Positions 2,403-47,984 are shown, counted from the first letter of the stretch. The stretch: DNA of 64,000 bases from a virus (IMGVR_UViG_3300027977_000006); one strand, 5' to 3'. Notes: generated by a model not told the origin, from the sequence alone. Made by a program: numbers and translations.

Positions 2403-2498
2403 TGTTTACATTTTGAGCAAAAATACTAATATTTATTAATAGAGTCAAGTGTTGTAAAAATAAAAATAATTTAGTACCTTTGCTAAAAGCCTAAGAAG

Positions 2499-3293
2499 AT
2501 GAACAGAGAAGTATACCCAAAAGTTAAAATTATAATTAACGAGTCTATTAAAGAGGCGAAATCGTTTAATGATTCAAAAGTTAGGCCAGAGTATTTGGTT
2601 CTTTCTATCTTGATGGATAATGATAATGAATGTGTTAAGGTACTTAAAGCGTTAAAAGTCAATACTTCAGAACTATATGATAGATTGTCAGACCATCTCA
2701 AAAGAAGTGATATAACCCCAAGAGTTGTTGTTTACCATAAAAAAACTGTTCCGTTTTCAGATGAAACAAAAGCTTTAATAAAGTCTTTGGACGAAGAATG
2801 TGAAAAATTAAATGACAATATGATTGATACAATACACATCATGTTGGCCATTTTAGCTAAAAAGAACAATATAAGTGAAATGTTAAACGAATTTTATGAT
2901 GTTACATACGATAATTTTAAAAATGTTATAAAAAATATGAAAGATGAAACCAACAGTGTATACGAAAACGAAAATATTAATGATGAAAGTGAATCATTTA
3001 AAAAGAAATCAAAGCAAAGTGACAACAAAAGTAAAACACCAGTTTTAGATAACTTCTGTAGAGATGTATCTAAAGCTGTTGAAAAAGGCGAAATAGACCC
3101 AGTAACTGGCCGTTCTGTTCAAATTAAAAGAGTTTCACAAATATTATCCAGAAGGAAAAAAAACAACCCTGTTTTGATTGGTGAACCTGGAGTGGGTAAG
3201 TGTATTTGTTCTGATACTAATATAGTTATTAGAAACGATATAACTGGTGAAGTTATTAAAATTAGTTTAAATGAATTTTTAAATAACAAATAA
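2499..3293 (+). CDS. clpC: ClpC-like AAA+ chaperone, N-terminal part: Clp-N repeats, start of NBD1 through the Walker A motif GEPGVGK, fused to a 30-aa intein N-fragment ([30 protein letters not shown]), ending at a TAA stop
   Basis: Matches ClpC TPxLDxFxRDLT...DPVIGR...[20 protein letters not shown]. Immediately after GK comes Cys plus an intein block A (CxxxDTxI), not the expected Thr. Confidence 0.8.
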
Positions 3294-3715
3294 CAATAAT
3301 AACAATAATAACAATGGAAACATTAAAAAAATTTACAAAAACGTGGAATATTAATAATTTTAGTATTCTTACTGATACTGGTTTTAAAAAAATTGATAAA
3401 TTACATGAAACAATTCTTTATGAAGTATACCATTTAAAATTAGCTGATGGAAAAGAACTTAAATGTGCTGATAATCATATTGTATTTGTTACTGAATATG
3501 ATGAAACTACTTTTGAAGCAGTTGGTTTAACTGAAATATTTGTTAAAGACCTAAAAATAGGTTCGTTCGTTATGGTATCTGATAATAATGGCAATTTAGT
3601 AGAATCTGAGGTTTTAGAAGTAAACAATTTGGGTTATAAAGAAATTATGTATGATTTTCAATTAAATGAAAATTCCAACAGACGTTATTTCACAAATGGA
3701 ATTTTATCACACAAC
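3201..3715 (+). other. Intein inserted in the P-loop of clpC. It is divided by a stop codon (3291-3293) and a -1 frame change into IntN (3201..3290, 30 aa) and IntC (3314..3715, 134 aa). The 23-nt spacer is made of AACAATAAT repeats
   Basis: Begins with Cys1, has DT in block A, and ends with HN followed by a +1 Thr. The insertion sits exactly between GK and T of GEPGVGKT. Confidence 0.75.
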
Positions 3716-5518
3716 ACATCAATTGTTGAAGGTCTGGCCCAACTTATTAAAGATGGTGACGCACCTAGAACACTAATAAACAAAAGAATATTCACGTTAG
3801 ATTTAGCATCAATTGTTGCTGGTACAAAATATCGTGGCCAATTTGAGGAAAGAATGAAAGCTGTTTTGGAAGAGTGCAAAGCAAACCCAGACATAGTTCT
3901 TTTTATTGATGAACTACATACGATTGTTGGAGCTGGAAACGCTTCTGGCTCATTAGATGCTTCAAATATATTTAAACCAGCCTTGGCTCGTGGAGAAATA
4001 CAAATCATTGGTGCCACAACATTGGATGAATATCGTGAGAATATTGAAAAAGATGGAGCACTTACAAGACGTTTTCAACAAGTATTGGTAGAAGAGCCAA
4101 CATTAGAAGAAACCAAAACAATTCTAATGAATATCAAAGAAAAGTATGAAAAACACCATAAAGTAACTTATACTGAAGAAGCAATTGACGAATGTGTTAA
4201 ATTATCAGCTAGATATATCATGGATAGGTCGATGCCAGATAAAGCAATTGATGTTTTGGATGAAGCTGGTGCAACAACAAATGTTGTGTTGGAAAAACCA
4301 GAAAAAATTAAAGAATTAGAAATCAAGAAAAGCCAAATCTTAGAAAAGAAAAAAGAGGTGGTTTTAAAACAAAAGTACGAAGAAGCTGCCAAACTTAGAG
4401 ATGAAGAAAGAAAAATTCTAGAGCAACTTCAATCGGCTATGGATGATTGGAATGCAACTCTAGAGAAAAAAACAACTGTGGTTGGTGTAGAACTAATCTC
4501 TGAAGTGGTTTCAATGATGACTGGTATACCTTTGACAAAAATATCAACACAGGAAAGCAAAAGACTAATGAACTTGGATAAAGAACTTACTGGTAAAGTT
4601 ATAGGACAAGATGCTGCCGTTACTAAAGTCGTAAAAGCTATAAAGCGTAATCGTATCGGTATCAAAAATAAAAATAAACCAGTTGGTTCTTTCATGTTCC
4701 TTGGTTCAAGCGGGGTAGGTAAAACTTTATTAGCTAAATTATTGGCTGAACATGTTTATGGTGATGTTGATGCGCTTGTAAGAATGGATATGTCTGAATA
4801 TATGGAAAAACACTCAGTATCCAGAATGGTTGGTGCGCCTCCAGGTTACGTTGGCTACGAACAAGGTGGTCAACTAACTGAAAAAGTAAGAAGAAAACCA
4901 CACTGCGTAATCTTATTTGATGAAATAGAAAAAGCACATGAAGACGTTTTCAACCTGTTACTTCAATTATTAGATGAAGGTCAACTAACTGATGGTTTAG
5001 GTCGTAAAGTAAACTTTAAAAACGCTCTTATTATCATGACATCAAATATTGGTGTTAAAGAAGTTAATTCTTTTGGAAAGAGCTTAGGGTTTGAAACGGC
5101 TGCGACTATTGTTAATGAAGAAAACAAAGCACGTGAGATAATTGAAAAGGCTTTAAAAAAGAAGTTCAGACCAGAATTCTTAAATCGTATTGATGAGGCT
5201 ATAATATTCAGAGGACTAACAGAAGAAGATATACATAAAATCATATATCTTGAAGTTGAAAGCTTAGAAAAACGTTTGAATGAAATGAACTTCAAATTAA
5301 AAATAAGCAAAGAAGCGGTTGAATACTTGGCTAAACAAGGATATGATGAAGCTTATGGTGCTAGACCATTAGCCAGAGCCATTCAACATTATGTGGAAGA
5401 TGCTGTTGCTGATGAAATTTTAAATGGAAACATAAAAGAAGGTGAAACAATTAGTATAGATTTTATTAAAGAAAAAGAAGCCATAATAATAAAGGGTAGT
5501 AAATCTAAATCTAAATAA
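3314..5518 (+). CDS. clpC: ClpC-like AAA+ chaperone, C-terminal part: a 134-aa intein C-fragment ending NGILSHN, then the extein TSIVEGLAQLI..., the rest of NBD1, a short middle domain and NBD2 (second Walker A GSSGVGKT; sensor and arginine-finger regions)
   Basis: The intein TxxH-like block (KCADNHIV) and the terminal block NGILSHN|T are present. The downstream sequence aligns with ClpC NBD1 and NBD2 (VIGQDAAV...FLGSSGVGKT...GYVGYEQGGQLTE...DEIEKAH...GARPL). Confidence 0.8.
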   Translation: METLKKFTKTWNINNFSILTDTGFKKIDKLHETILYEVYHLKLADGKELKCADNHIVFVTEYDETTFEAVGLTEIFVKDLKIGSFVMVSDNNGNLVESEVLEVNNLGYKEIMYDFQLNENSNRRYFTNGILSHNTSIVEGLAQLIKDGDAPRTLINKRIFTLDLASIVAGTKYRGQFEERMKAVLEECKANPDIVLFIDELHTIVGAGNASGSLDASNIFKPALARGEIQIIGATTLDEYRENIEKDGALTRRFQQVLVEEPTLEETKTILMNIKEKYEKHHKVTYTEEAIDECVKLSARYIMDRSMPDKAIDVLDEAGATTNVVLEKPEKIKELEIKKSQILEKKKEVVLKQKYEEAAKLRDEERKILEQLQSAMDDWNATLEKKTTVVGVELISEVVSMMTGIPLTKISTQESKRLMNLDKELTGKVIGQDAAVTKVVKAIKRNRIGIKNKNKPVGSFMFLGSSGVGKTLLAKLLAEHVYGDVDALVRMDMSEYMEKHSVSRMVGAPPGYVGYEQGGQLTEKVRRKPHCVILFDEIEKAHEDVFNLLLQLLDEGQLTDGLGRKVNFKNALIIMTSNIGVKEVNSFGKSLGFETAATIVNEENKAREIIEKALKKKFRPEFLNRIDEAIIFRGLTEEDIHKIIYLEVESLEKRLNEMNFKLKISKEAVEYLAKQGYDEAYGARPLARAIQHYVEDAVADEILNGNIKEGETISIDFIKEKEAIIIKGSKSKSK

Positions 5519-5546
5519 ATAATAAAGGCCCCTTTTTGGGGCCTTT

Positions 5547-6293
5547 TTGATATTTATAATTATGATTGAAGATGAAATTAAAAAACTTTACAGTGATTAT
5601 CTAGACGGATTGGATATTTATGAAAATAGAACCAGTTTAAAAATTAGTAGAATAGTTTTAAAACCAGAAGCTAGACAAGGTGGTGTGGGTACTAAAATTA
5701 TGCAAGCAATAGTTAATTATGCTGACAGAAATAAACAAATAGTGACACTAACACCTTCTTCTGATTTTGGTGGAAATAAAAACAGACTTATTCAATTTTA
5801 TAAACGTTTCGGTTTTAAACATAATAAAGGCATATACAAAAACTTTGAATTCATGGATTCAATGATAAGATACCCTAAATTAAATGAAAACATGAAACCA
5901 ATTATAAAAAAACTTCTTAGAGAAGCTCTTATGACAAAAGAAGAGTCAGCTATTAGAATAGTAGCTGACTTTACAAACTTTGCTAATGAGTTTTTAGGGA
6001 TAAATGATGGTGTACAAGTTAAACTAGCTTTTGAGAGAACTCCAGATTTAAAAACAACTGCGTATTACAATTCAACTGGTTTTCTTGTAGTTTATGTCAA
6101 AGACAGAGCAATAATCGATGTGTGTCGTTCTATAGCACATGAATTGGTACATCATAAACAGAATTTAGATGGAAAACTTAAAGACGCTGTTATAGATGGT
6201 GAAGATGGGAGCCCAATTGAAAACGAAGCAAATGCTGTTGCTGGTATCATAATTAGAAAATATGGTAGACTACACCCAGAGATTTATGTATAG
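5547..6293 (+). CDS. Two-domain protein: an N-terminal GNAT-like acetyltransferase fold (RQGGVGTKIM) and a C-terminal HExxH (IAHELVHH) zinc-peptidase-like domain
   Basis: Motif-level recognition only. Confidence 0.45.
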   Translation: MIFIIMIEDEIKKLYSDYLDGLDIYENRTSLKISRIVLKPEARQGGVGTKIMQAIVNYADRNKQIVTLTPSSDFGGNKNRLIQFYKRFGFKHNKGIYKNFEFMDSMIRYPKLNENMKPIIKKLLREALMTKEESAIRIVADFTNFANEFLGINDGVQVKLAFERTPDLKTTAYYNSTGFLVVYVKDRAIIDVCRSIAHELVHHKQNLDGKLKDAVIDGEDGSPIENEANAVAGIIIRKYGRLHPEIYV

Positions 6294-7143
6294 TACAAAA
6301 CAAATTTTAAGAGAAGAATTATACTTACATAATAAAAAAAAATTATTGTCAGAACATTCTTTATTGCTTATAGAAGATGATTATTATGTTACTACTATTT
6401 TAGGTGTTGATAAATCTTTATTTGAAAATAATTTATTTTCTTATAAACAAACAGTTATCGAACAACAAATTATAGTTGAAAATATGATTGATTCTATCAA
6501 TAGTTATTTAGGTAGTGTTGTTCAAAAAGGTAAAGAAAAATCTTTACAACTTATTAAAACAATTAAAGACACAAAAGAATTGGCTATATTATTTAAAAAT
6601 ATTTTATTAGACCCAAAATTAATGGAAGAAGCTATTGAAAATGTTAAAAAAAATCTTAATGAAACAATAGTTGAGATTAAAAAATTAATTAATAATATTT
6701 TAACTAAATTAGGTTTTAAAATTAAAGGGTTTACTGACAAATTAACAATTTTTTTAGATAAAATATTAGAATATGGTAATAAATTTTTAAATTCAAAAGG
6801 TTGGGTTGGTTTTGTAACAATGCTTGGATTAACAGTAATGTTAATATGGTGTAAAAAAAATTGGTTGGATAAGTTATTAAATTTAGCAATAGAGCAATTA
6901 GAAAATCAAATTACAAACATTACTAGTATTGTTAATATTTTTAATAGTTTAAAAGAATTAATATCTGATGCGGCATCTAACTTAGGGGTTGATGAAATTT
7001 TAAACTGGTTTATTGGTTTTGGTAAAAAAGAACCATTAATAGGTATTGTTTTTAGTGCGATAGAAATAGTTAATATTATATCAGAAATTCTAATACCAAC
7101 TGTAAAAACAATAACAACCAGATTTAATTTAAGTAAATCATAA
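6286..7143 (+). CDS. hypothetical protein with a coiled coil and one transmembrane segment (alternative start at 6262)
   Basis: ORF overlapping the upstream stop by 8 nt; a hydrophobic segment GWVGFVTMLGLTVMLIW. Confidence 0.5.
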   Translation: MYSTKQILREELYLHNKKKLLSEHSLLLIEDDYYVTTILGVDKSLFENNLFSYKQTVIEQQIIVENMIDSINSYLGSVVQKGKEKSLQLIKTIKDTKELAILFKNILLDPKLMEEAIENVKKNLNETIVEIKKLINNILTKLGFKIKGFTDKLTIFLDKILEYGNKFLNSKGWVGFVTMLGLTVMLIWCKKNWLDKLLNLAIEQLENQITNITSIVNIFNSLKELISDAASNLGVDEILNWFIGFGKKEPLIGIVFSAIEIVNIISEILIPTVKTITTRFNLSKS

Positions 7144-7159
7144 TTAAAATTTTAATAAA

Positions 7160-8500
7160 ATGCCTTATAAAGTTAAAGGAAATTGCGTGTACAAAAAAGA
7201 TACTGGAGCCAAAGTTGGTTGTACCAAAGGTTCGGTAGATAAATATTTAGCTGCTCTTTACGCAAATGCTAATGAATCTGTGGAAAAAAATAATTCAATC
7301 AAAGGTGGTAAAGCTGATAAGTTGTCTATTAAAGACATAGCAAAAAAATTTAACGTATCAGTTGAAAAAATTGAATCTCAAATTAAAAAAGGTATTGAGA
7401 TTGAAAAAGAACATACCAATGACAAAGAGAAAGCGACTGAAATAGCAATGGACCACGTTACTGAATTTCCAGATTACTATGATAGAATAGAAAAAATGGA
7501 AAAAGAAGCTAAGAAAAAATGGGAGAATGGAAAAGAAAAAACTAATGAAAATATAAAAAAATCAATAGCTGCTGCTGCTTTAGGGTTAGGTTTAATGGGA
7601 AGTCCTAACGTAAGCAAGGGTATGAATTTAACACCAACAACACAAACACAAACACAAACCCAAAAAGTATTATCTAAAGTAAATTTTGAAGCTTCACAAC
7701 CAATATCAAATCCAGATTTAGATTTAGTTCATGGTGCTTTAGGTTCAAATAGATTACAAGATGATTTTGAAAAAAGAATAGAAGATGAATTAACCAATCA
7801 AATTCAAAACGGTAATACACCTGATGTCTCTAATATAGAAGTAAAAACATACATACAAGGTGATAAAATAATAACCAAAGCATCTTGTGATATTATACAA
7901 TCACAAGATGGAATTGCATATAATCATTTTACAACCAGAGGTTCAATAGGTTCAAGATATGCTGAAAGACACGATAACCAAATAACTGGTTTGATTGATA
8001 GATTAGAAAATTATTATGGTGGTGGTGCTAAACAAGTTGGTAAACCAATTGATATTTCGTTTAATTTAAATGGTAAAGTTATAACATATAGACAAAGCTT
8101 TTTTGTTGCTTCTGATAATAAAAACACGTCAAATATAACTAATCAAACAACACAAAAAATAAGTGGTACTGATATCAATGATTTAAGAAATAAATTAAAT
8201 TCAGAAACCAAAAATGTTTATATTGATATTAACTCTATTAATGTTGATATGAATAACTACAGAATATCGTATAAAACTGGTAATGTTAAAATATATAAAA
8301 TTTCTTTATTGTTTGACGATTCTGGTAATTTAGATAATAGGTTAAGCAATATAAAATCACAAAACCCAACATTTAAAGAAATTAAAAGAGGTAAAATAGG
8401 TAATTTAGATTGGGTTGTTAGTATCATACCTTATGAAGAAATTAATGAAACTAAAGTTCTCATTAAAAAATTGTTAAATGAAAAATTAAACAGTTTTTAA
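7160..8500 (+). CDS. hypothetical protein (446 aa) with a conserved phage N-terminal domain (…DIAKKFNVSVEKIESQIKKGIEIEKEHT…DHVTEFPDYY) and an Asn/Thr-rich C-terminal region
   Basis: ORF; the domain is recalled from other phage proteins (DUF5661-like), unverified. Confidence 0.5.
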   Translation: MPYKVKGNCVYKKDTGAKVGCTKGSVDKYLAALYANANESVEKNNSIKGGKADKLSIKDIAKKFNVSVEKIESQIKKGIEIEKEHTNDKEKATEIAMDHVTEFPDYYDRIEKMEKEAKKKWENGKEKTNENIKKSIAAAALGLGLMGSPNVSKGMNLTPTTQTQTQTQKVLSKVNFEASQPISNPDLDLVHGALGSNRLQDDFEKRIEDELTNQIQNGNTPDVSNIEVKTYIQGDKIITKASCDIIQSQDGIAYNHFTTRGSIGSRYAERHDNQITGLIDRLENYYGGGAKQVGKPIDISFNLNGKVITYRQSFFVASDNKNTSNITNQTTQKISGTDINDLRNKLNSETKNVYIDINSINVDMNNYRISYKTGNVKIYKISLLFDDSGNLDNRLSNIKSQNPTFKEIKRGKIGNLDWVVSIIPYEEINETKVLIKKLLNEKLNSF

Positions 8501-8594
8501 ACTTTAACCTCACCTATAAACTCAAAACTACCACATAAACGTTTATTATCGGCATAGTGATTAAATATGATGAAAACATTATTGAGCGTTTAAA

Positions 8595-9682
8595 TCATAT
8601 TCTCACATAACCAATATACTCGTGTGAAAAACATATTCTTTTATTATCCGTGTAGTGGTTTTTAAATATGTTTAAATGATTAATATCAGTGCGTAAAACT
8701 CGGTTCTTGCTGGTTGGTCTCCATAATTTAGACCTTGAACGGTATAACCCCATTCTTGGATGGGCAGTTCTAGAAAAATATCTATGGCCTTGGTCTACAT
8801 GTATCTGACCAATAGCGTCAGAAAATCTAACACCAATACCCATTCCTTGATAGTCAGGCAAGACAACTGTTCTGTGTCCTCGCCAACCATTTTTTATATT
8901 TCCATTAGGTAATGTAAGCGTAGCTCCAAAAGCAACCACTTGGTCTTCCCAAACACCAATATAGCATCTGGATGCTTTATTTATATTCCCATCTAAATAG
9001 TGATGGTCTTTAAACATTCGCCAAGTATCATAGTTTGTGCGATATATTTTGATAATGATTGGTTTTCGGACAAAAAAAAACCGTTAAGCAATTCACCAGT
9101 GTCTGTGTTAAGCACCCAATCTGGTTCTATCCAATTTAAAATATCGTAATGGCATGTTGATAAAACAACGTTCTCAATGTCATTCGTCTTTATATAACGA
9201 GATAATGCTACACTGGCCGCTTTAGCCACGTTTCTATCAACAACACTAGTATATTCATCAATAACAGCGTTTGATTTAATTTTACGAGCTAAATCAGCCC
9301 TGAATTTTTCACCGTTTGATAAAACAGAATATGGTTTATACCATGAAGGTATAGAATTAAAACCTACTGAACTAAGTCTGTTGATTCCATCATCTGGAGA
9401 ATCAAAATGTGATATAACAGCCTTATTTAAGCCCCAAATGGGTTTTTCTTCGATACCAAAATGTTTTAACATCGTAGTTTTACCACTACCACTACTACCA
9501 ACAATAACACCTATTTTAAACTTTTCGGGTATTTTAGTTGGAAATTTCCATGGATAAAATTTAGAAGTACCGTCAAATAAACAATCAAACGATTTTTCAC
9601 TTGCAGAAATAAATTCATCCTTCTCAACACTAGATGTCAAAGGAATCGATTCTCTTTCTAATTTTTCTATTAATTTTTCCAT
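8595..9682 (-). CDS. ABC-type ATPase (Walker A GSSGSGKTT, signature LSNGEKF, Walker B VIDEYTSVVD) fused to a C-terminal GNAT-like domain (LPDYQGMGIGVRF). It is split into two ORFs by a frameshift at a T9 homopolymer (9076-9084 on plus = A9)
   Basis: Adding one T to the T9 run joins frame 1 (…LLNGFF) to …PIIIKIYRTNYDTWRMFKDHHYLDG, which is the start of the second ORF. Confidence 0.55.
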
Positions 9683-47947: not shown

Positions 47948-47984
47948 GTGCAAAGATAAACAAATTTTTGATATTACCAAATTT
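47948..47984 (-). promoter_or_regulatory. Consensus early promoter (hyper-conserved copy)
   Basis: GTGCAAAGATAAACAAATTTTTGATATTACCAAATTT. Confidence 0.65.

Follow-up and report, generated by a model that had tools for sequence, protein, structure and literature searches.

Organization of the clpC-like locus

The window, i.e., a 64,000-nucleotide (nt) stretch of DNA from the virus IMGVR_UViG_3300027977_000006, contains two adjacent open reading frames (ORFs) on the plus strand at positions 2499-5518, and this locus was compared with other sequences. ORF1 and ORF2 are very probably the two halves of a phage clpC-like gene, interrupted by a naturally split class-1 mini-intein that is divided at the atypical (S2) site and inserted in the Walker A motif of the first ATPase domain, D1. 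ORF1 (2499-3293, frame 0) encodes 264 amino acids (aa), and in the sequence and the ORF list its tail reads GEPGVGK/CICS…FLNNK before the stop (a slash marks a splice junction). ORF2 (3314-5518, frame 2) encodes 734 aa, starts with METLKKFTKTWNINNFSILTDTGF and continues through KCADNHIVFV to the junction YDFQLNENSNRRYFTNGILSHN/TSIVEGLAQLIKDGD. Read at greater length, the junction is MYDFQLNENSNRRYFTNGILSHN/TSIVEGLAQLIKDGD, with the motif GILSHN/TSIVEGLA. A TAA stop, a spacer of 20 nt and a change of frame separate the two ORFs. The piece boundaries were confirmed by translation, i.e., an N-extein of 234 codons, an N-terminal intein piece (IntN) of 30, a C-terminal intein piece (IntC) of 134 and a C-extein of 600. 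The features of the locus are as follows.

2475..2482, plus strand: promoter-like box TACCTTTG (TAnnTTTG), 16 nt 5' of the ORF1 ATG
2499..3200, plus strand: N-extein, 234 codons, with Clp_N, linker and the start of the AAA+ domain D1 up to Walker A (GEPGVGK)
3201..3290, plus strand: IntN, 30 codons, block A with the Cys1 nucleophile
3291..3293, plus strand: TAA stop, end of the N precursor, identical in five independent assemblies
3294..3313, plus strand: spacer, 20 nt, A/C-rich, caataataacaataataaca, without a Shine-Dalgarno sequence
3314..3715, plus strand: IntC, 134 codons, METLKK...KCADNHIVF (block B)...MYDFQL (block F)...NGILSHN (block G, His-Asn)
3716..5518, plus strand: C-extein, 600 codons and stop (coding 3716-5515), assigned by Pfam and alignment to ClpC
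5524..5546, plus strand: strong intrinsic-terminator-like hairpin of 9 pairs (6 G-C) with a T run behind it, at the end of the two-gene unit

A preliminary description of this DNA had reported a ClpC sequence broken at GK/T, a block A with Cys1, a stop, an ATG in a new frame and an HN end followed by Thr, and the sequence and the ORF list match it exactly. The distance of 23 nt given there between the two genes had included the stop codon, and the real spacer is 20 nt (3294-3313).

The ClpC-like extein

The N-extein matched Pfam Clp_N (E = 2.5e-12) and aligned to ClpC residues 14 to about 213. The C-extein begins at Thr+1 and holds the remainder of D1, a short M-domain in which a UVR-like motif was recognized, the second ATPase domain D2, an LGF loop and the D2-small domain. 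Its own D2 Walker A motif, GSSGVGKT, is intact. When the 30 and 134 intein residues were removed in silico, an 834-aa protein was obtained, which aligned (13-818) to Staphylococcus aureus ClpC with E = 3e-221. The alignment forms one stretch without a gap across GEPGVGK-T, and so the ClpC sequence does resume exactly at the Thr, as had been claimed.

Clp_N, AAA_lid_9, UVR, AAA_2 and ClpB_D2-small were found in the product by Pfam search. ClpB and Hsp104 align to it in two stretches, whereas ClpC aligns in one. In the alignment, the LGF tripeptide stands opposite the GF of the S. aureus protein. By these sequence features, the spliced product would be a ClpC-class Hsp100/Clp ATPase, and LGF is a putative ClpP-docking loop. 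With the Firmicutes ClpC proteins of S. aureus (6EM9) and B. subtilis (3J3S) it shares Clp_N, D1, the short UVR-like M-domain, D2 and the (L)GF at the position of the ClpP-docking loop; unlike them, it is phage-encoded. No NCBIfam model passed its curated cut-off with the extein. No ClpP-like active-site motif was detected in the 64-kb window, a negative of little weight given that the whole genome measures 300 kb or more.

An orthologous phage ClpC is encoded at locus L029 (L029:2300-5338) and is 71-77% identical to the spliced product. Its D1 is uninterrupted, GEPGVGKTAIVEGLAQLIKDG, and its D2 P-loop holds a contiguous intein of the same family of about 173 aa, i.e., the reverse of the occupancy in the window. 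The intein boundaries in the window are exact, because deletion of the insert restores the ClpC sequence that is found uninterrupted in this orthologue. At the DNA level, relatives in GenBank phages were limited to clpB/clpC-like stretches of 66-70% identity, and the best of these came from two records (634-642 kb) that are labelled 'uncultured phage' and carry no annotation.

Motifs, profile matches and predicted fold of the intein

The insert consists of 30 + 134 = 164 aa and lies in the Walker A motif of D1, directly behind its Lys (GK/T). It had been described as a mini-intein of this size without an endonuclease domain, and this holds. The catalytic set is complete, i.e., Cys1, the block-B His (ADNH), the block-F Asp (MYDF), the terminal His-Asn and Thr+1, including all of the residues named earlier. 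Cys1 directly follows GEPGVGK and is also kept in the N pieces of relatives. The break falls between blocks A and B, with block A in ORF1 and block B in ORF2, and the likeness drawn to the AceL-TerL type of split is therefore sound.

The fused 164-aa insert matched Pfam Intein_splicing (PF14890, E = 1.4e-6) and Hint (PF01079, E = 2.3e-5), and the alignment to NCBIfam intein_Nterm (TIGR01445) spans the fused junction, covering residues 1-89. Among solved structures, the best match was CatC (6DSL chain B, E = 5.7e-7), with residues 41-163 of the query aligned to 12-111 of the chain. CatC is the C piece of Cat, an engineered consensus of the atypically split AceL and GOS TerL inteins. This alignment pairs block B, C-(A/S)-D-N-H, and block G, NGI-(L/V)-SH, and both IntC and CatC start about 10 residues before the aligned core. 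Given the Pfam and CatC E-values and the gap-free alignment of the spliced ClpC, the insert is an intein homologue beyond chance.

The insert is predicted to have a HINT fold. An AlphaFold2 model of the fused intein had a mean predicted local distance difference test (pLDDT) score of 79.9, with 85-95 in IntC. All Foldseek matches in the PDB at E<=0.001 were inteins or other HINT domains (hedgehog, BIL), including VidaL, Cat and PolB16 OarG. The gp41-1 intein superposed on the model at 3.0 A over 120 columns. In the model, the two pieces meet inside the first helix that follows beta2 or at its end.

Profiles built for the two pieces were searched against the six-frame translation of the window. 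The IntN profile found a single matching place (E = 3e-19), and the only match of the IntC profile above the inclusion threshold was this locus (E = 1.6e-50). No further copies were found in the window by these profiles, and motif scans concur. Over 21 sequences, C-A-D-N-H is invariant and S-H-N-T nearly so (at least 90% each).

Reproducibility of the split

The stop and the frame change are no artefact of sequencing. The loci L001-L005, from five assemblies of JGI, Logan and ENA data, showed 0 mismatches to the window over 2499-5518, where the comparison of L005 covers the first 954 nt of the locus, at which its contig ends. At least 23 contigs, spread over 27 blocks of the collection, encode the exact 264-aa ORF1 product together with its stop codon, with sources in JGI (3300027970, 3300028044), Logan (SRR8441833, SRR8441488) and ENA (ERZ27250438). 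In all five contigs for which genes were listed, the next gene starts 20 nt after ORF1; four of them have the 734-aa gene there, and in L005 the contig ends before that gene is complete. A check of the spacer region for an indel against independent data had been proposed, and these identical assemblies answer it.

The longest contig encoding the exact ORF1 product measures 300,480 bp, and 8 of 10 large ORFs of the window matched PHROG phage families. This contig, the PHROG matches and the recurrence in independent assemblies identify the source as a large phage that is uncultured but was assembled many times over.

Relatives in viral metagenomes

Relatives of the intein were searched for in IMG/VR, where at least 525 loci encode them. 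This type of split had been called rare, a view that such a number does not support. Details were taken from the 80 best loci, and the pair counts from those plus L006. In total, 69 IntN/IntC pairs were found, and 68 of them are broken at the same position. The gap between the aligned intein domains is below 500 nt in 23 pairs and 963-2643 nt in 46 pairs. Where the halves lie close together, the distance from stop to start is -4 to 425 nt, and offsets of 0, 1 and 2 between the frames are all represented. Over the whole set, the spacer spans -4 nt to 2.6 kb, and the forms of 1-2.6 kb have genes between the halves. Since the relatives vary in spacer, frame and intervening genes, sequencing error and recoding are excluded as general explanations of the split.

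In a protein search with the fused intein, the C pieces all stood at the start of proteins, i.e., Met, a short leader, IntC ending in SHN/T, and the C-extein. N pieces 75-82% identical to the window IntN terminate other ClpC N-fragments of 112-113 aa (P0031-P0034). The start of ORF2, Met-x-(E/N/T)-L-K-K, is also kept in other relatives at the D1 site. The D1 site is likewise split in L006, L007 and L010, with two ORFs in 2.6 kb between the halves, and a small AAA ATPase is split in the same way in L011 with a gap of 276 nt. Among the loci examined, the sole contiguous copy is the D2 P-loop intein of L029. Its linker (…DRFDEIQKRIKKTNNVLLFDKHEL…) and the leader with which split D2-type C pieces begin are homologous.

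The host sites of 82 full-length copies were classified by simple motif, so the classes are approximate: 37 are ClpC-D2-like, 16 TerL-like (terminase large subunit), 9 ClpC D1, 8 small AAA ATPase, 3 SbcC/Rad50-like, 2 ClpX-like and 7 other. The junction HN/T with Thr at +1 is present in 81 of the 82 copies. ClpC in phages had been regarded as uncommon; 46 of these 82 copies from the 80 best loci lie in ClpC-type exteins, and within this group of phages ClpC-like genes are thus not unusual. In L016, L030 and L032, ClpC carries split inteins in both the D1 and the D2 P-loops, so that the protein is in three pieces.

Some relatives showed further breaks. Two TerL fragments have an IntC, at the P-loop, as their first part and another IntN as their last, i.e., P0026, ending …FIDE/CIGGDSKITVRNKKTGEIEQITMEEFYNRLK at a site that resembles Walker B, and P0027, with …AIN/CQTGNAIVTIKDNVTGEIEKLTFEELEQRL… as its last part. 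From sequence, these fragments would imply a three-piece terminase with two atypical split inteins. In L010, the ClpC C piece is broken again (5001-7163 and 7866-9005) into 233 + 404 aa with a 246-nt gap, and an IS605 OrfB/TnpB (Cas12f-like) gene lies about 0.7 kb downstream. For the D2-type N pieces in L014 and L015, which are short contigs, the upstream ORFs were unrelated. Translation of the L014 ends gave MCIRDR and LSLIHI; we take these to be derived from sequencing adaptors, so that the contig ends are presumably not biological.

Genes between the halves

Of 55 ORFs between intein halves, 44 form one family (loci L006 and L016-L095). Its members measure 190-524 aa, apart from two shorter fragments, and L006:5406-6899 is an example. 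The C-terminal domain carries the motif E-(F/Y)-(D/N/H)-G-x-x-(Y/W/F)-H, and toward the N terminus there are '…YW..KG.S.EEAK…' modules, which recur, and clusters of Cys. A profile of 30 sequences gave only four matches among solved chains, i.e., I-Bth0305I (3R3P) and three Vsr entries, at a weak E of about 0.3. In a Pfam search with 30 members, the MTES_1575 restriction-endonuclease family was matched by 11 and DUF559 by 8, all weakly. The 497-aa ORF of L006, searched singly, had no match in Pfam. By these motifs and matches, the proteins are the probable homing endonuclease of the inteins that flank them.

In L016, L030 and L032, the D2 halves usually enclose a Vsr-like gene. The second intervening ORF of L006 (6913-7908, 331 aa) showed a weak match, below the cut-off, to ART-PolyVal, an ADP-ribosyltransferase of polyvalent proteins (E = 1e-4).

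At the window locus there is no gene between the halves, only the 20 nt. The window element is the endonuclease-free, adjacent state of a mobile family. The fractured genes of Dassa et al. 2009 (PMC2677866) are laid out as N-extein-IntN, a free-standing Vsr-like homing endonuclease gene and IntC-C-extein. The relatives L006, L017, L032, L044 and others share exactly this layout with its Vsr-like gene, whereas the window lacks the endonuclease gene. ClpC is not among the eight host enzyme types of that study (PMC2677866).

Proposed trans-splicing and alternative explanations

By analogy with characterized relatives, we strongly infer that the ORF1 and ORF2 products are joined by trans-splicing. 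The steps are taken from Cat and AceL-TerL (PMC11766414, PMC13014065). The 264-aa N precursor and the 734-aa C precursor would be translated separately from one mRNA, and the short IntN would dock on the larger IntC to complete the HINT fold. Cys1 would form the thioester, the N-extein would move to the hydroxyl of Thr+1, and the terminal Asn would cyclise. An O-to-N shift would then leave a Lys234-Thr peptide bond. The expected products are an 834-aa (about 95 kDa) ClpC-like unfoldase and free intein pieces of 30 and 134 aa. Before splicing, D1 would be without a complete P-loop. A tryptic peptide across the junction had been suggested as a target for detection of the product, but it is a poor one, as trypsin cuts precisely at GVGK/T.

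Several points weigh against the reading of the two ORFs as a functional split-intein gene. Splicing is assigned by analogy, and the closest characterized intein, Cat, is 24% identical (Foldseek alignment). A search with intein hidden Markov models had been recommended; the E-values were significant, but the scores stayed below the curated cut-offs, i.e., 28.6 vs 35.8 bits for PF14890, 24.5 vs 29.7 for PF01079 and 18.5 vs 24.5 for TIGR01445. IntN alone had no match among solved structures, and the homology to characterized members thus lies in the C piece only. The Thr of block B is replaced by Ala (ADNH), a position at which Cat and gp41-1 have Ser. In the AlphaFold2 model, built from an input alignment without coverage of IntN, the pLDDT of IntN is 60-69, its docking is unconvincing and the root-mean-square deviation to whole inteins is 11-14 A. 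The values of dN/dS, i.e., the ratio of nonsynonymous to synonymous substitution rates, are rough, as dS is near saturation.

In one alternative, the intein halves would serve only to dimerise the ClpC fragments, and a non-covalent assembly would work without splicing. The fragmented ribonucleotide reductase of a phage is a described precedent (PMC3045599), and the C fragment by itself has a complete D2 module. Without splicing, the intein would remain in the D1 Walker A loop, between Lys and Thr. The retention of Cys1, the block-B His, the block-F Asp, the His-Asn end and Thr+1, with HN/T throughout the copies but one, is also unexpected for a docking domain. We consider this assembly improbable.

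Decay of the element is a second alternative, i.e., a contiguous intein was hit by a nonsense mutation and a frameshift, and clpC became a pseudogene without splicing. The splicing in the window is itself an inference, and the homing endonuclease gene of many relatives is missing at the locus. Against this, both extein ORFs are intact (234 + 600 codons), every catalytic residue is retained, and the Met-x-(E/N/T)-L-K-K start of ORF2 is conserved at the D1 site. In pairwise comparisons with orthologues, dN/dS came to 0.07-0.20 in the two exteins, and IntC gave 0.22-0.28, values that are rough with dS above 1; these low ratios speak for purifying selection and argue against a pseudogene. Dozens of diverged loci share the break point, which is not expected from independent decay. 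A decayed element is therefore very unlikely.

Recoding, i.e., a -1/+2 programmed frameshift or readthrough at the ORF1 stop that would yield one chain with a cis-splicing intein, has in its favor a brief overlap of the frames, as the ORF2 frame is open from 3287 and the ORF1 stop is at 3291. However, no slippery heptamer is present at AAT AAC AAA TAA, and the spacers, frame offsets and 1-2.6 kb of intervening genes in relatives could not be bridged by recoding. With no slippery site and with frame and spacer varying over the family, recoding was rejected as highly improbable.

The chance of a sequencing or assembly artefact, in which the true genome would have a contiguous cis-splicing mini-intein as the preliminary description had allowed as a fallback, is negligible: the spacer is a short AACAATAAT-type repeat in which indels are conceivable, and contiguous family members exist (the L029 D2 intein and the TerL inteins of Ackermannviridae), but two errors would be required, i.e., the TAA stop and the frame change, the spacer in the ORF2 frame (QITIITIIT) is unlike the linker of contiguous relatives, and both the identical assemblies and the 68 related pairs split at the same place, with varied spacers, offsets and intervening genes, refute it.

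Comparison with known inteins

Natural atypical split inteins are divided after beta2 (S1: VidaL, PolB16) or after alpha1 (S2: AceL-TerL, GOS-TerL) and have N pieces of 15-37 aa (PMC13014065). Four natural short-N split inteins were named in that 2026 paper, i.e., AceL-TerL, GOS-TerL, VidaL and PolB16 (PMC13014065). Trans-splicing of AceL-TerL, GOS-TerL and Cat has been described (PMC13014065, PMC11766414). The window element has in common with these three the S2 split, after helix alpha1 and before block B, the class-1 type and a phage or metagenome source; with CatC it also shares block B as C-(S/A)-D-N-H and the end NGI(L/V)SHN. Cys1 is found in all except GOS-TerL, which has Ser1. The N piece of 30 aa falls within their range of 25-37 aa, whereas the C piece is 134 aa against 104-115 aa, i.e., about 30 residues longer. 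The host proteins also differ, a ClpC-like AAA+ unfoldase in the window and terminase in the others, and the +1 residue is Thr instead of their Cys (PMC11766414). The window intein is a different allele of the same structural kind and not an orthologue of AceL-TerL. Its site is Walker A, GK/T, while the AceL and GOS TerL inteins presumably lie at Walker B of the terminase. The inteins gp41-1, NrdJ-1 and IMPDH-1, characterized in the study of fractured genes, differ in being canonically split, with a long N piece.

VidaL and PolB16 OarG have N pieces of 16 and 15 aa and come from metagenomic phage-type genes, and the predicted fold of the window insert matches their structures (6vgv, 8cpn). Their split lies one element earlier, after beta2 (S1; PMC13014065), in contrast to S2 in the window. 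The host of PolB16 OarG is a PolB-type DNA polymerase, and its residues are Ser1/Ser+1.

The P-loop inteins in TerL of Ackermannviridae phages (e.g., Klebsiella phages 0507-KN2-1 and Magnus and Vibrio phage VAP7) belong to the same family and are 33-43% identical to IntC. They have a like insertion site, …RQSGK/C…SHN/TT…, and the same block motifs. Unlike the window element, each of them is encoded in a single ORF and would splice in cis, with a linker at the place of the break in the window, and the host is terminase. Contiguous TerL P-loop relatives were found in 291 GenBank phage records, mostly of Ackermannviridae. The TerL coding sequences of L096 (NC_022343.1, 115108-117318) and L097 (NC_048765.1, 98545-100815) contain a mini-intein, …RQSGK/C…SHN/TTVVAAF…, and these two and most of 40 listed records are annotated merely as 'terminase large subunit'. 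The Magnus TerL intein has been noted in print (PMC6763660).

P-loops are a well-known hot spot of intein insertion (PMC4760082), and in the available part of that intein survey ClpP is the only Clp protein mentioned. No published split intein in ClpC, ClpB or another Clp ATPase was found in the literature, in a search that left the metagenome surveys of the VidaL and Cat papers outside. The window element is a split intein of a known kind with a new host protein, ClpC, and Thr at +1. Its family is abundant in viral metagenomes, so the element is less exceptional than was first thought.

Significance of the intein family

The window element may be the tip of a very large and apparently undescribed clade of phage inteins, a wider proposal that we hold only tentatively and think somewhat less likely to be right than wrong. 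Such a clade would share the Walker A GK/T site and the S2 split, and it would move among unrelated P-loop ATPases (ClpC D1, ClpC D2, TerL, small AAA ATPase, ClpX-like and SbcC-like) and between both P-loops of a single ClpC, probably by means of the Vsr-like endonuclease gene. Contiguous forms, split forms without and split forms with the endonuclease gene occur together in the one family, and this makes the 'fractured gene' model of split-intein origin directly testable by phylogenetics. If the proposal is true, the three states are a natural series on how split inteins arise.

The clade would also be a large pool of split inteins with a short IntN and Thr+1 for protein engineering. Short N pieces that can be synthesised are prized for protein semisynthesis and labelling. 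The intein of this locus is a further candidate, in which the N piece has 30 aa, the chemistry is Cys1/Thr+1 and the exteins are of a new kind, and hundreds of natural relatives could be screened for speed, orthogonality and extein tolerance. In biological terms, a large phage with a probable Bacteroidota host apparently makes its AAA+ unfoldase as two pieces that have to be ligated after translation within the ATP-binding loop. In sister phages, the intein is at the other P-loop, at both, or contiguous.

Expression signals, likely host and other genes of the window

The consensus TAnnTTTG is the -7 promoter element of Bacteroidota, and these bacteria use Shine-Dalgarno sequences weakly. The box occurs 216 times in the window against about 94 expected, typically 13-31 nt 5' of the starts of dozens of ORFs. 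A second element, TAAATTTG, often lies about 27 nt farther upstream, e.g., at 47958/47985 and 33925/33953, both on the minus strand. A Shine-Dalgarno-like motif was found for 5 of 86 ORFs of the window, and many leaders are A/C-rich, aaacaaacaaaca, like the 20-nt spacer. On the plus strand, no further TAnnTTTG lies between the box at 2475 and the ORF2 ATG (3314), and the one that follows, at 3508, already falls within ORF2.

The box at 2475-2482 is likely the single promoter of both ORFs. The pattern of TAnnTTTG, the scarce Shine-Dalgarno motifs and the A/C-rich leaders point to a host that is probably a Bacteroidota bacterium. With one promoter-like box and one terminator-like hairpin, ORF1 and ORF2 are probably carried on one two-gene transcript.

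The only other ORF in the window with an intact Walker A motif, GSSGSGKT, is at 8993-9682 on the minus strand; it encodes 229 aa and has no intein. It matched PHROG 11143 (E = 3e-61) and weakly resembles ABC ATPases. Between about 26.6 and 49.5 kb, small ORFs of about 90-270 aa follow one another in a long series on the minus strand, and the majority have their own promoter-like pair and a leader of the aaacaaaca type.

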